Shown in pieces: positions 31,902 to 36,227 of a stretch of DNA of 64,000 nt. The DNA comes from Candidatus Heimdallarchaeota archaeon (GTDB lineage: Archaea > Asgardarchaeota > Heimdallarchaeia > Hodarchaeales > Hodarchaeaceae), in NCBI GenBank assembly GCA_011364965.1, contig RDOB01000002.1, forward strand, positions 128,001 to 192,000, in the 5' to 3' direction. The notes under the pieces are model-generated. The model saw only the letters and a program-made list of their open reading frames with translations, did not search any database and was not told the DNA's origin. Both the position numbers and the translations under genes were made by a program. Numbering within the stretch: the stretch's first letter is position 1; each line of letters begins with the position of its first letter.

Positions 31902-32465
31902 TCAGATTTGCCCTTTTCTCTTTTTATTTTCAATTATTAGAATTCCAAGATGCGAAAATGGAGATTCCATCCCTTCACCAGACTTAGCAGAGCATAAATA
32001 ATATCCCGACAGTTTATTCTGTCTAACAAAATTACCAGCTGACTCTGAAATTAGGTCTCTTTGATCCTCGGGTATTGTGTCGATTTTATTTCCTAATAAG
32101 ACAATAGGTATGTTAGGATCATTGTGTTGACGTATCATTCTGACCCATTCAGGTATTTCAGAAAGGGTTTGGATCCTTGATGTATCAAATGCAACAAATG
32201 CCCCCGATGAGCCAGTACAGTATCCTGGAAAAAGGGATCTAAATCTATCTTCACCCGCGTAGTCCCAAAATGCCATTCGAACAATATTTTCTCCGATTTC
32301 TTGATCCATAACAAGAAAATTGATACCTACAGTACTAACAGCAGGGATATAGCTATTGGTTTCATGACGTTTTAAAAGTGTCGTCTTACCTACTCCCCCA
32401 GGCCCTGCCACTACAACTTTAACTGTAAGGACGTCAGGACTAACTATAAATCTAGTCTTCGACAT
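31902..32465 (-). CDS. Rab-like small GTPase
   Basis: GPGGVGKT, STVGINF, WDYAGE, NKID and SAK motifs. Confidence 0.92.
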   Translation of the reverse strand: MSKTRFIVSPDVLTVKVVVAGPGGVGKTTLLKRHETNSYIPAVSTVGINFLVMDQEIGENIVRMAFWDYAGEDRFRSLFPGYCTGSSGAFVAFDTSRIQTLSEIPEWVRMIRQHNDPNIPIVLLGNKIDTIPEDQRDLISESAGNFVRQNKLSGYYLCSAKSGEGMESPFSHLGILIIENKKRKGQI

Positions 32466-32481
32466 ATTTGGATTCCTCAGA

Positions 32482-33006
32482 TCACATAGCTCTTTTTGGC
32501 TTTTTATAAATCCTTTCAGCCATCAATTGAAAGACTCTTTGCGTATTTTCGCCAGTAAAAGCACTTGTTTGGAAGTATTCATCAATTTGGTGGGTGTTTC
32601 GAAATTCATTAATTTTTACAGGGGATAATGTAACTCCTAAATCTGCCTTAGTAGAAACAAGAAAGTTAACACTTTCGTTCTCTCTCCCATAAACACGTAT
32701 CCACTCATGAAGAAGATCTAAAGTCTCCTCACGTGAAGGATCAAAAGCTAATATCAATCCATCGCAATCTGAAGCGTATTGGGGAAATATCATACGAAAT
32801 TTTGGTTCTCCTCCAAAATCATAGACATGAATAACAACAGATGTACCATCTTCAAGTTGAACAGTTTTCAATGTAAATTCAAACCCAACAGTGGAATATA
32901 GTCCTTTAAGTGGGAACTGTTCATGAATAAATCTATGAACAAGTGATGATTTCCCTACATGCTTTTCTCCTGCTATCACAACTTTTAATGGTCGATCGAT
33001 TGACAC
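32482..33006 (-). CDS. Rab-like small GTPase (divergent)
   Basis: GEKHVGKS, STVGFEF, YDFGGE, TKAD and SAF motifs. Confidence 0.9.
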   Translation of the reverse strand: MSIDRPLKVVIAGEKHVGKSSLVHRFIHEQFPLKGLYSTVGFEFTLKTVQLEDGTSVVIHVYDFGGEPKFRMIFPQYASDCDGLILAFDPSREETLDLLHEWIRVYGRENESVNFLVSTKADLGVTLSPVKINEFRNTHQIDEYFQTSAFTGENTQRVFQLMAERIYKKPKRAM

Positions 33007-33141
33007 GAATTATTCCCACTTCATATAATTAAATCTAACCTAAACTAGCTTATATCAATTCTTTTGACGGTAATCAGCGGCAAATTAGATTTTTAATATT
33101 ATATCTTCAGTTTTTGTATCAGCTTTCATCATTTTTATTTA

Positions 33142-34329
33142 TTATTTAATATCAATTTTTGTTTCGTTTTTTGGATGTATATTTTTCAAAGTATTGGCTG
33201 ATTTAGGAATATGGACTTCTGCGGTCTTAATCAATAATGATAATTCTTCACTTCGCGTTATCACTTTTGCGAGTAAAGAATAGACGATCTCATATTTTTC
33301 ATTTACCTTCCTATCAATTATTGCCTGAATTTCATCATGGAAACGCTCTAATTCACGTTGGTGGTTTTTGATTCGAATATTTTGTTCATCCATAATTTTT
33401 TCGTATTCTTTCACCGTCTCTTGAAGTCCTTTTACTAATTCCTCCCTTGATTGCTTTGCCTCTGTTTTTAATTCCTCGGTTAGTTCTGTAATCATGTTTT
33501 CTAATTTTTCCCCAACTTTTTTTGGCATAAAATTTACTGAAATTTCATCAAGAATCTTTGTATCAGACTCTTTAAGTGATTGCGCCGTTAATCCCAATTC
33601 AGTCCGTATACTTTCATTATAACTCTCTATTATTCTTGAAAAGTTCTCAAAATGGGTTTCCTGATCTCTTTTTATAACAGATATTATTTCATTAAACTGC
33701 TGTTTGAGGTTGGATAAATTATCCCTATGCTCATCAAGACTATCTGCATGATTGTCTCCCAATCGACCAAGCTGCTCTAGACCTTCTCCGAGAATTTCCA
33801 TTGAATTCTTTAGGGCATCAAATTGATTTTGTGATAAAGCAATATGGTCAGATATCTTAGAATTCACACTATCGAATGCTGAGTTGGTTTTCCCTTGCTC
33901 ATCGGTAAATGCGTTTAAAATCAATTCTCTTGATTCTTTAATTTCTGTGGAAAAATTAGTCTTCAAATCCTCTTGAATCGTCTCTAAATGTGATAAATCT
34001 TCTTTAATTTCTCCCTCCAATTTATTCTGAGAGCTTTTAATCTCAGATACATTATTTTCCAAGTTTTTATTTAACTCGGAAATCCTTTCCTGGATTTTTG
34101 TAGATAATCTAGAAGTTTCTTCGTTTTGATTTTCTAGCGTCTCTATCTTATGATTTAGCTCCTCTTTCCAATTCCCTAAAGCAAGATTATCCTCCTCAAA
34201 TCGCACTTCAATGTTATCAATAATTTTTTTCAGATCAGTAATTTGTTCATTATTTTCTTCTAAGAACTTTGTTATATCCAATAGTCTTTTTGCAAGTTCT
34301 AGGTCTTCGCTGTCTTCATTTTGCCTCAA
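33142..34329 (-). CDS. Long coiled-coil protein
   Basis: Heptad-rich E/K/L/I/N sequence over nearly the whole length. Start overlaps the upstream gene's stop. Confidence 0.75.
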   Translation of the reverse strand: MRQNEDSEDLELAKRLLDITKFLEENNEQITDLKKIIDNIEVRFEEDNLALGNWKEELNHKIETLENQNEETSRLSTKIQERISELNKNLENNVSEIKSSQNKLEGEIKEDLSHLETIQEDLKTNFSTEIKESRELILNAFTDEQGKTNSAFDSVNSKISDHIALSQNQFDALKNSMEILGEGLEQLGRLGDNHADSLDEHRDNLSNLKQQFNEIISVIKRDQETHFENFSRIIESYNESIRTELGLTAQSLKESDTKILDEISVNFMPKKVGEKLENMITELTEELKTEAKQSREELVKGLQETVKEYEKIMDEQNIRIKNHQRELERFHDEIQAIIDRKVNEKYEIVYSLLAKVITRSEELSLLIKTAEVHIPKSANTLKNIHPKNETKIDIK

Positions 34330-34756
34330 TATTCATCTTCTCCTTCAAATTTTTATTTGCCTCTGTCAATGCGATGTGAATGTCATCTAGGGCATTTAAT
34401 AGTTTCGTTTCAATGCTTTCCTGTTGAATAAACTCATTAATATCCATTCCTTTTTCAACAGCAGGTAAAAACCGTTTCCAATGAGGTCTGATTTCCTCAA
34501 TGTTTTTTGAATCCGCCATTAATATCAATTTTGTTTCAGCATGTAATACTTCGACAATAACTCCTAATTTATGTTCCCCAATGGTAATTTCTGTAATTCC
34601 TGCTGGAAGAATTCCCTTTCTTTTCAAGATTAACAGGGTATCTGCTCTTTCCTGAATGATTGGAAATAGCTCCGTAGGAGTTTGAAGAAAAATTCCTTTT
34701 ACAGAGAAGGCTTCTGCAAATTTTTCTAAAATTTGTTTAAGACTCACAACCATCAA
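34316..34756 (-). CDS. Hypothetical protein, possible Roadblock/longin-like fold plus C-terminal helix
   Basis: Pattern helix(LKQILEKFAEAF)-strand(VKGIFLQ)-...-strands(ITEITIG, KLGVIVEV, KLILMA)-helix. Confidence 0.55.
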   Translation of the reverse strand: MMVVSLKQILEKFAEAFSVKGIFLQTPTELFPIIQERADTLLILKRKGILPAGITEITIGEHKLGVIVEVLHAETKLILMADSKNIEEIRPHWKRFLPAVEKGMDINEFIQQESIETKLLNALDDIHIALTEANKNLKEKMNIEAK

Positions 34757-34900: not shown

Positions 34901-35611
34901 ATGAATGACATCTCTTTAGGTTCACAATTGACCGTTATCCTTCCCACATTGAATGAAAGCGAAAATATTGGAAAAATGATTTCGCATTTGCACTCACTCC
35001 TATCAGATTTGAAGATAATAGTTGCTGATGATGGATCAACTGATGGAACCATAGAAATTGTAAATCAGAGGATTATTGAAAACAGGAATATTTCTTTGTT
35101 AAATCGAAGTGAAGATCCAATAAAAGGGCTTTCTGTTTCCATCGCTGAAGCGATCAATCAAACTGAAACAGATTATTTTGTAGTTTTAGACTCAGATTTC
35201 CAACATCCCCCTGAAAAGGTAATTGATGCCCTAAAATTGCTGAATGAAGGATTTCCCCTTGTTATTGGATATCGTACCGAATTTAAAGGTTGGAGTTTTA
35301 AACGGCGCTTAATTTCTTGGGGTGCGACTGATTTAGGGAAGTTTGCTCTTTTCATTCGAGGCAGAAATAGACCAAGAGACATTATGAGCGGTTTTTTTGG
35401 CGGAAAAACAGATTTTGTCCAAAAAATTTTACATGAAAATCCTGGAATTATAGAACCTCGTGGATATAAAATTTTATTTGATTTATTGAAAATTTTACCA
35501 AAAAAAGACAAGATTGGGGAATTTCCTTATAGCTTTCAGGAAAGGGAGGAAGGAAAATCAAAAATCAAAATGAAGCACTTCTTAATCTACTTTAGATCGT
35601 TATTCAAATAG
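34901..35611 (+). CDS. GT2 polyprenol/dolichol-phosphate mannose synthase (Dpm1-like)
   Basis: VILPTLNESENI, DDGSTDGT, DSDFQHPPE, DIMSGFF, GYKILF and FQEREEGKSK motifs. Confidence 0.88.
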   Translation: MNDISLGSQLTVILPTLNESENIGKMISHLHSLLSDLKIIVADDGSTDGTIEIVNQRIIENRNISLLNRSEDPIKGLSVSIAEAINQTETDYFVVLDSDFQHPPEKVIDALKLLNEGFPLVIGYRTEFKGWSFKRRLISWGATDLGKFALFIRGRNRPRDIMSGFFGGKTDFVQKILHENPGIIEPRGYKILFDLLKILPKKDKIGEFPYSFQEREEGKSKIKMKHFLIYFRSLFK

Positions 35612-35612
35612 T

Positions 35613-36227
35613 TTAATACTGTCGTTGTCCAGGAACTGTTGAACGAATGCGACTAGTAGTAGACCGGCTAGTTTTTCTCTGGCCATCTACAAATCGCATA
35701 ATATTGGTGCCTAGAAGCTGAAAAGCTTTTTGGATATTAACTCCAGTTTTTGCTGAAGTTTCTACATAATGACACGTAAACCCTTCTGGTTTGGTTAAAT
35801 TACTTAATCTGTCAGTGAAAATACGTCCTTGTTCTGGAGATACAGTATCATCGGATAATTCTCTCATATCAATTTTATTGGCCACAACAACAATAGGAAC
35901 TCTTCCCCGACCATTATTGGTCCATAATTCATTAATCCATTTTGGGGTGTTAAAATAAGAATCTGGTCTTGTTACATCGTAAACTAATAAAGCACCTACA
36001 CATCCTTTATAATATACTTCTCTGACTGCATCGAACCGCTGTTGTCCTGCTAGGTCCCAAATTTGATATCGAATGTGTTTCCCGCTTACATCATCATCTC
36101 GCATTGCGAAGTCGGCACCAATAGTTAACAAATATTGCGCCTTGAATCCTTTCCCTAAATAGCGCTCACGAATGGCTGTTTTTCCAACACCACCATCACC
36201 AATCAAGACTATCTTAAGAACGGTCAT
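35613..36227 (-). CDS. Rab-like small GTPase
   Basis: GDGGVGKT, TIGADF, WDLAGQ, YYKG, NKID and ETSAK motifs. Basic Ser/Thr-rich tail. Confidence 0.95.
   Translation of the reverse strand: MTVLKIVLIGDGGVGKTAIRERYLGKGFKAQYLLTIGADFAMRDDDVSGKHIRYQIWDLAGQQRFDAVREVYYKGCVGALLVYDVTRPDSYFNTPKWINELWTNNGRGRVPIVVVANKIDMRELSDDTVSPEQGRIFTDRLSNLTKPEGFTCHYVETSAKTGVNIQKAFQLLGTNIMRFVDGQRKTSRSTTSRIRSTVPGQRQY

Follow-up and report, generated by a model that had tools for sequence, protein, structure and literature searches.

A putative Hodarchaeales-specific small-GTPase switch cluster with a cryptic protein of predicted Roadblock-type fold

A window of 64,000 nucleotides (positions 128,001 to 192,000 of contig RDOB01000002.1) from the metagenome-assembled genome of a Candidatus Heimdallarchaeota archaeon of the order Hodarchaeales (2.97 Mb, 87% complete) contains four genes, here named A to D, that may together code for a small-GTPase switch. 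Gene A codes for a small protein with a predicted Roadblock-type fold, B for an acidic coiled-coil protein, and C and D for Rab-like GTPases with Glu in place of the Gln of switch II. We propose, at a probability of about 0.55, that these genes form a small-GTPase switch cluster specific to the Hodarchaeales, in which A and B would be the platform for the Glu-type GTPases. The conserved linkage of the genes and the distribution that they share suggest to us that A-B binds GTPases of the C and D clades, either as their regulator or as their effector or scaffold. A first-pass annotation had read the four genes as a self-contained switch module with its regulator and effector, possibly with heterodimeric GTPases dependent on a GTPase-activating protein (GAP). 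A GTPase switch is plausible from linkage and distribution, but the heterodimeric and GAP-dependent parts of that reading were not supported.

The A-B pair is linked to GTPase genes in several lineages

The list of open reading frames (ORFs) places the four co-directional genes, all on the minus strand, where the first-pass annotation had them, with A and B overlapping and C and D 16 bp apart. The order A-B-C-D is kept in 18 of the 18 relatives of the same genus in which the region is assembled (labelled Hodarchaeota, Hodarchaeales, Candidatus Hodarchaeum mangrovi or Heimdallarchaeota B3_Heim). Within the genus, the proteins are 45-60% (A), 34-44% (B), 68-76% (C) and 64-81% (D) identical to those of the window, and the product of E, a neighbouring Rab-like gene, is 84-90% identical. 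One genome, G007, looked like a natural case of D without A to C; it was discarded, as an assembly gap (a run of N) cuts through C.

Beyond the genus, an A-like gene stands immediately before a B-like gene in nine of nine deeper loci (Table 2). In the seven distant loci, A was detected at profile E-values of 1e-14 to 3e-27 and B at 3e-28 to 2e-39. A GTPase gene lies within about 3.5 kb of A-B in six of eight informative lineages, against about 9% predicted by the density of GTPase genes in the genome; the chance estimate, for a GTPase within 7 kb of A-B, corresponds to a rough P of 1e-5, and the lineages are not fully independent. The linkage of A-B to a GTPase persists although the flanking genes have been exchanged completely and the layout takes three different forms, at about 25% identity of A. 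By these sequence comparisons, the arrangement of the cluster is more than chance.

Table 2. Gene order at A-B loci outside the genus, and at a related locus
Locus	Source	Genes in order
G023	sister family	A, B (224 residues), C-like (FDFGGE)
G022	sister family	A, B (231 residues), three inserted genes, D-like (WDYAGE)
G022, contig C150	sister family	C-like adjoining an E-like Rab (58% identity to E)
L050	Heimdall LC_3	D-like (WDYAGE), GT2 on the opposite strand, A, B
L059	soil-metagenome contig	D-like (WDYAGE), GT2 on the opposite strand, A, B
L056		GT2, A, B, Q-type GTPase resembling E (38% identity)
L053		GT2, A, B (no GTPase seen in the fetched stretch)
L054		A and B alone (no GTPase seen in the fetched stretch)
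L057, L058		A-B loci truncated by contig ends

The distribution of the genes is equally restricted. The A profile matched 19 of 21 and two of two genomes of the two Hodarchaeales families, and none of 59 genomes from the five remaining families of that class; across 301 genomes of the phylum, E-values were convincing in the two Hodarchaeales families only. Weak matches in a further family (f5; genomes G184 and G190) were rejected: they covered 37-48 profile positions, had no counterpart by blastp and were lost with a broader profile. When 185,579 species genomes were scanned with a pattern built on an alignment of A, which finds close relatives only, 18 loci were returned, nearly all labelled Hodarchaeota, Heimdallarchaeota or Promethearchaeota, with one labelled Hermodarchaeota and one Thorarchaeota. 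A, B and the Glu-type GTPases share one narrow range, and they were found only in Hodarchaeales.

Protein A has a predicted Roadblock-type fold that sequence searches miss

Protein A matched no Pfam family (E ≤ 1) and no NCBIfam family. A scan of the genome with PF03259 found eight Robl_LC7 genes, A not among them, and hhalign of the A profile against these eight proteins gave a probability of 0.1%. Together, the negative Pfam, NCBIfam and hhalign results rule out A as a member of the Robl_LC7 sequence family. The sole hint at the sequence level came from a language model, which scored A at 0.85 against a cluster with 49% Robl_LC7 members.

The AlphaFold2 (AF2) model of A, made from 20 orthologues (mean predicted local distance difference test score 81), has helices (H) and strands (E) in the order H6-16, E19-25, E30-35, H38-47, E53-59, E62-72, E75-82 and H83-103. 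This alpha-beta-beta-alpha-beta-beta-beta-alpha topology is the Roadblock order, and it is followed by two extra C-terminal helices. When the model was compared with the PDB by Foldseek, the best matches were nearly all Roadblock domains (probability 0.9-0.99, E 5e-3 and above). With VIA-align, over 48,161 chains, the best match was the Roadblock domain of LokiRagO (8yl2; Z 11.0, root-mean-square deviation 2.7 over 98 residues), and about 20 other Roadblock proteins followed at Z 8-10, including MP1/p14, LAMTOR, MglB, MglC, MK-D1 Roadblock3 and domains of Mon1-Ccz1. GAF and PAS domains scored Z 7-7.8, below the Roadblock proteins. A shape search of the ESM Atlas was uninformative, as it returned only generic PAS/GAF-like sensor domains (TM-score 0.43-0.58). 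Three residues are invariant across distant members, W90 and R92, both in an HWKR motif of helix 3, and I123. As a predicted structure, the Roadblock-type fold of A is reasonably well supported. Thus, the Roadblock-like character given to the small protein in the first-pass annotation stands for the fold and falls for membership of the sequence family. A may be a very diverged Roadblock-fold protein, one that probably dimerises as MglB, LAMTOR and the C-terminal domains of the Rags do.

Protein B is a predicted coiled coil with a private C-terminal domain

The AF2 model of B consists of three long helices of about 100-130 residues each (5-125, 134-265 and 271-369) and a disordered tail, in agreement with its first description as a long coiled coil. 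The protein has a net charge of -29 and no transmembrane segment (maximum 19-residue hydropathy 0.97), and Pfam gave only sub-threshold coiled-coil matches. Alignments delimit a conserved C-terminal domain with an invariant [IV][DE]RKVNEK motif (Table 1). With a profile of this domain, only 49 proteins were recovered from 1.84 billion cluster representatives (E ≤ 1e-3), and in these it is always C-terminal. The N-terminal half of B (33775-34329, minus strand) is rich in indels, with repeated helical segments rich in Glu, Gln and Thr that vary in length and sequence between species; the sister-family B proteins have only 224-231 residues. Foldseek found no match for the fold of B in the PDB, Pfam searches with the C-terminal domain gave sub-threshold coiled-coil noise, and a language-model atlas returned scores of at most 0.87, to unnamed clusters only. 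A SNARE identity for B was considered and ruled out, as no SNARE family is among its Pfam matches (E ≤ 1) and the protein has no membrane anchor, whereas Heimdall SNAREs are tail-anchored.

GTPases C and D carry Glu at the position of the catalytic Gln

Both C and D have the motifs of the Ras superfamily (PF00071; G1 GxxxxGK[ST], switch-I Thr, G3 DxxG, G4 [NT]KxD and G5 SA[KFVLI]). In D these are GPGGVGKT, the switch-I Thr, WDYAGE, NKID and SAK, invariant in 18 orthologues. In C of the window they are GEKHVGKS, the switch-I Thr, YDFGGE, TKAD and SAF, and over 18 orthologues GEK[H/R]VGKS, the Thr, [Y/F]DFGGE, TK[A/S]D and SA[F/V/L/I]. With their nucleotide-binding motifs intact, C and D should bind GTP. 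In the genus, the P-loop of C has Lys and His/Arg at Ras positions 12/13, whereas the C-like genes of the sister family read GESGVGKS; an Arg at this position recalls GTPases activated by dimerisation, such as hGBP1.

The best PDB sequence matches were Rab30, Rab18 and Rab1 for C and Rab14, Rab18, Rab12 and Rab5 for D, and at least the top 40 matches were Rabs or Ypt proteins, at E 1e-20 to 1e-23. No MglA chain was among the 60 best PDB sequence matches (Rabs and Ran), in a search not aimed at MglA-like features. Neither protein has the architecture of the Rag/Gtr GTPases: both consist of a G domain only, and their Gtr1_RagA matches in Pfam (E 0.035-0.13) were below threshold. We found no C-terminal Cys for prenylation in either protein; the tail of D (...KKRKGQI) is polybasic and without Cys, that of C ends in ...KKPKRAM, and Cys residues are internal only.

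The Glu at the position of Ras Gln61 is invariant in the orthologues of C and D (18 each). When the two proteins were aligned to Rab14, Rab18 and Rab30 by phmmer, the Glu of WDYAGE or YDFGGE fell exactly on the Gln of WDTAGQ. The first-pass annotation had set this substitution against the Gln of two other Rab-like genes in the window, at 20567 (WDTAGQ) and 35613 (WDLAGQ), and both the alignments and a motif census bear it out. Of about 35 recognisable small GTPases in the whole genome, nearly all are DxxGQ; DxxGE occurs only in C, in D and in one unrelated gene (MDTAGE), which lies outside the window (contig C2:11231-11776, minus strand; locus L040:4232-4777). In a maximum-likelihood tree this third gene is the sister of the WDTAGQ gene at 20567-21088, and its Gln-to-Glu change is for this reason an independent one. 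No Roadblock-like or coiled-coil neighbour was seen beside it.

In the same tree, the C and D clades have supports of 99/97 and 99/98, respectively. Together they group with a Q-type pair (97/94), and a group of the Glu-type clades alone is weak (80/47). The closest relatives of C and D in other Heimdallarchaeia families are DxxGQ in 12 of 13 cases and DxxGS in one. Because of this clade structure and of the DxxGQ and DxxGS relatives outside the order, the Gln-to-Glu change looks like an old trait of a paralogue pair specific to the Hodarchaeales. It would have arisen before the split of C and D, as a single change for which the support in the tree is weak.

Replacement of Gln61, natural or engineered, with the other G motifs intact is also found in Rap (Thr61) and in the Ras mutant Q61E. 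Rap needs a GAP that provides an Asn in trans. In Ras Q61E, the intrinsic GTPase activity is raised (PMC2987813, PMC10515638), and for this reason the Glu of C and D is not to be read as a loss of catalysis, nor does the missing Gln imply dependence on a GAP, as had been suggested. By analogy with Ras Q61E, the Glu could act as a general base, and C and D are more likely to be active GTPases with altered chemistry than dead or strictly GAP-dependent ones.

Layout of the locus

The coordinates of the cluster and its neighbours are given in Table 1. For gene A, the mechanical ORF begins at a TTG and reaches 34756 (146 residues). Because the orthologues and a 143-residue database copy (P0001) align at the GTG at 34747, they indicate that this codon, giving MSLK..., is the true start.

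Table 1. Features of the cluster and adjoining genes in the window
Feature	Positions	Strand	Description
Gene D	31902..32465	-	187-residue Rab-like GTPase; Pfam Ras 1e-31
Gene C	32482..33006	-	174-residue Rab-like GTPase; Pfam Ras 4e-25
B-C intergenic spacer	33007..33141	-	135 nt, AT-rich, without an oligo-T run
Gene B	33142..34329	-	395 residues, acidic coiled-coil protein
Conserved C-terminal domain of B	33214..33774	-	residues 186-372, from alignments
Gene A	34316..34747	-	143 residues; predicted Roadblock-type fold (residues ~1-105) and C-terminal helical extension (~106-143)
GT2 glycosyltransferase	34901..35611	+	236 residues, divergent to A; Pfam Glycos_transf_2 3e-21
Gene E	35613..36227	-	204-residue canonical Rab-like GTPase (WDLAGQ), upstream of GT2

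In the window A and B share 14 nt, across the genus the overlap is 4-47 nt, and a GGAG lies about 12 nt 5' of the TTG start of B, within the 3' end of A. The overlap and the internal GGAG suggest translational coupling, by which A and B would be made in fixed proportion, and a complex of the two proteins is probable. The 16-nt gap between C and D corresponds to gaps of 7-35 nt, or to overlaps, in the other members of the genus. Shine-Dalgarno-like motifs precede B, C and D; that of C, GAAGTGGGAA, lies in the B-C spacer ahead of a GTG start. In 18 orthologous B-C gaps, 52-188 nt long in the relatives, no conserved TATA-like element was visible, only Shine-Dalgarno-like motifs. Runs of at least five T were present in three of these 18 gaps and, in 10 of 18 cases, within 80 nt 3' of D. 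The counts fit read-through from B into C-D, as weak evidence.

A DPM1-like GT2 gene is the most widely kept neighbour of A-B

The GT2 protein aligns with the dolichol-phosphate mannose synthase (DPMS) of P. furiosus (5mlz) at E 1.7e-28, residues 9-235 on 24-244 of 374, and is without the membrane domain; in NCBIfam it has sub-threshold matches only, to AglJ and to a Dol-P hexose transferase. By this alignment it is a DPMS-like catalytic domain. It can be compared with P. furiosus DPMS and with eukaryotic DPM1, for which DPM3 is the tether; like it, human DPM1 has no membrane domain of its own. Neither A nor B is related to DPM2 or DPM3, however, and a transmembrane segment is absent from B.

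GT2 adjoins A in the genus and at the distant loci L050, L053, L056, L057 and L059, and is in this respect the most widely kept neighbour of A-B; it is absent beside A-B in G022 and L054. The first-pass annotation had left this gene out, and a self-contained module of four genes is too narrow a description of the locus. In a less likely reading, A-B would be chiefly an accessory of GT2, a scaffold or tether that takes this enzyme to the membrane or the machinery of glycosylation, and the GTPases would be secondary, interchangeable or loosely linked. This reading agrees with the breadth of the GT2-A-B layout, which L053 has with no GTPase nearby, with a GT2 that matches only the catalytic domain of DPMS, without its membrane part, and with GTPase partners that differ in type (C, D or E) and position. 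OST48_N-like genes after B at two distant loci point the same way, but those matches are weak and NCBIfam is negative for them. Moreover, the two loci without GT2 argue against such an accessory, and a divergent orientation says less about linkage than does coupling on the same strand. Roadblock-fold proteins are best known as partners of GTPases, and the Glu-type GTPase clade and A-B have the same narrow distribution. For these reasons we rate the accessory role as unlikely, if the strongest of the competing explanations, and continue to favour a platform for the GTPases.

Within the favoured switch cluster, the divergent and anchorless GT2 suggests, speculatively, an output at the membrane or in glycosylation. 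A bolder version, in which the Glu-type Rab-like GTPases use A-B to recruit or control the DPM1-like GT2, perhaps with OST48-like factors, appears quite improbable at present. If it were true, archaea would have a case in which GTPases control how glycosylation is organised, and the Rab/effector logic of the endoplasmic reticulum might have a forerunner in it.

Other genes recur around A-B. At L059:6594-9407, L057:3163-7707 and L050:10419-14528, a run of genes of eukaryote-signature type follows B on the opposite strand. In L057 and L059 the gene after B is OST48_N-like (by precomputed Pfam matches that are weak or faint; no match for these proteins in NCBIfam), and in LC_3 an unannotated gene of 449 residues is found there. 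The remaining genes code for a HEAT-repeat protein (L059, LC_3), a profilin-like protein (L057) or an unannotated one of 121 residues (L059), and an M48 peptidase. Gene E, strongly conserved across the genus, has E-like counterparts after B in L056 and beside the C-like gene of G022 (contig C150), and may belong to the same system.

Two further loci of the same genome combine related genes. On contig C12 (38610-40617, minus strand), two tandem canonical Robl_LC7 genes adjoin a WDLAGQ small GTPase, an MglB-like arrangement of the classical kind that makes a useful comparison within the genome. On contig C13 (34906-36030, plus strand), two Arf/Sar-like GTPases (GLxxAGKT; VDLGGQ and WDIGGQ) stand in tandem, with abutting ORFs.

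Weighing the switch cluster

Several points weigh against a switch cluster. Most of the 18/18 synteny comes from within one genus, where the flanking genes (SMC, MFS, GT2 and Rab E) are syntenic too; because of this, the comparisons with deeper lineages weigh more. Among these, however, L053 and L054 have no GTPase near A-B within the DNA fetched, and GT2 is as well conserved beside A-B as any GTPase. The fold of A was called from a single AF2 model with a shallow alignment, no link to Roadblock is seen at the sequence level and the Foldseek E-values are weak (5e-3 or above). In addition, the sandwich of GAF and PAS domains is similar, and these domains are also present in the lists of structural matches. 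Finally, the spacer between B and C, 52-188 nt long, could carry a promoter of its own.

It is improbable that C and D form an obligate heterodimer without hydrolysis of its own, to which a Roadblock GAP would give the catalytic residue in trans. Such a complex would account for the tight tandem of C and D in all members of the genus, for the absence of Gln from both proteins and for the invariant R92 of A. The Lys and His/Arg at Ras positions 12/13 in C would also block a classical Arg-finger GAP, and they recall the P-loop Arg of GTPases activated by dimerisation. GAPs of the longin/Roadblock type that do use an Arg finger exist, namely GATOR1 and FLCN. Yet an obligate pairing is doubtful, as in sister lineages C-like and D-like genes are found apart: beside A-B, a C-like gene stands alone in G023 and a D-like gene alone in G022, LC_3 and L059, and D-like paralogues also occur singly. 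Only within the genus does C have its unusual P-loop; the sister family has the ordinary GESGVGKS. Furthermore, Ras Q61E is faster than the wild type, and Roadblock GAPs of the MglB type give no catalytic residue (see Tran et al., 2024, PMC10933270).

Least probable of the competing explanations, in our estimate, is that the gene order merely reflects descent without shared function, A being a generic GAF/PAS-like alpha/beta protein and B an unrelated coiled coil: although most of the synteny is of one genus, with SMC, MFS and Rab E syntenic there too, and GAF/PAS domains are among the structural matches of A, the linkage persists through turnover of the flanks and three rearrangements at about 25% identity of A, the overlap of the A stop and the B start is conserved, A, B and the Glu-type GTPases have a common phyletic pattern, and the predicted topology of A is exactly that of Roadblock, whose matches outrank GAF. 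We conclude that an A-B platform for Glu-type Rab-like GTPases is the reading best in keeping with these results.

Relation to known systems and implications

The cluster shares features with several known systems and differs from each. Like MglA-MglB, a bacterial Ras-like GTPase with a Roadblock-dimer GAP, it has a stand-alone Roadblock-fold gene beside a small GTPase, and MglB and MglC match A at Z 8.7-8.8. In contrast, C and D are Rab-like, A has no Robl_LC7 signal, and there are an extra coiled-coil partner, two GTPases and a Glu for the Gln. Paired GTPases with a Roadblock platform are also found in the Rag/Gtr GTPases with the Ragulator (LAMTOR) and in the Asgard Rag-like GTPases LokiRagO and LokiRagM, and the Roadblock domain of LokiRagO is the best match of A. 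In the Rags, however, a Roadblock domain is part of the GTPase itself, at the C-terminus, and serves to dimerise it, whereas C and D are single-domain Rab-like proteins with the Roadblock in a separate gene. An operon with two Rag-like GTPases has been described in MK-D1 (Tran et al., 2024, PMC10933270). The same work covers Asgard Rab-like GTPases and stand-alone Roadblock proteins (Thor-Rab, Thor-RB and MKD1-RB); there, as in C and D, the Rab-like cores have no C-terminal prenylation Cys. Thor-RB and the MK-D1 Roadblock2 and Roadblock3 are structural matches of A (Z 7.3-8.8); their Roadblock proteins can be recognised by sequence, but A cannot. The golgins and EEA1, with their Rab or Arl partners, likewise combine a Rab-like GTPase with long predicted helices, but this is an analogy only, as B has no detectable homology to tethers, no membrane anchor and no known Rab-binding domain.

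Roadblock-GTPase neighbourhoods in Asgard archaea were already known (Tran et al., 2024, PMC10933270). In the literature searched, whose coverage was incomplete, we found no description of the cluster, of the B family, of the fixed A-B pairing or of a DxxGE clade of Asgard GTPases. The novelty lies in a cryptic Roadblock family, in the private family of B, in the DxxGE clade and in the link to GT2.

The Hodarchaeales are widely discussed among the closest archaeal relatives of eukaryotes, and the regulation and the targets of Asgard small GTPases are an open question. Because A is missed by sequence annotation, counts made from sequence alone underestimate the Roadblock repertoire of the Asgard archaea. 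With its four to six genes, the cluster is a compact one that could show whether a Roadblock-GTPase-effector logic of the eukaryotic type already works in Hodarchaeales, and what effect a Glu at the catalytic position has in a native GTPase. The recurrent association with a DPM1-like enzyme, moreover, leads to a concrete hypothesis for the output of such a switch.

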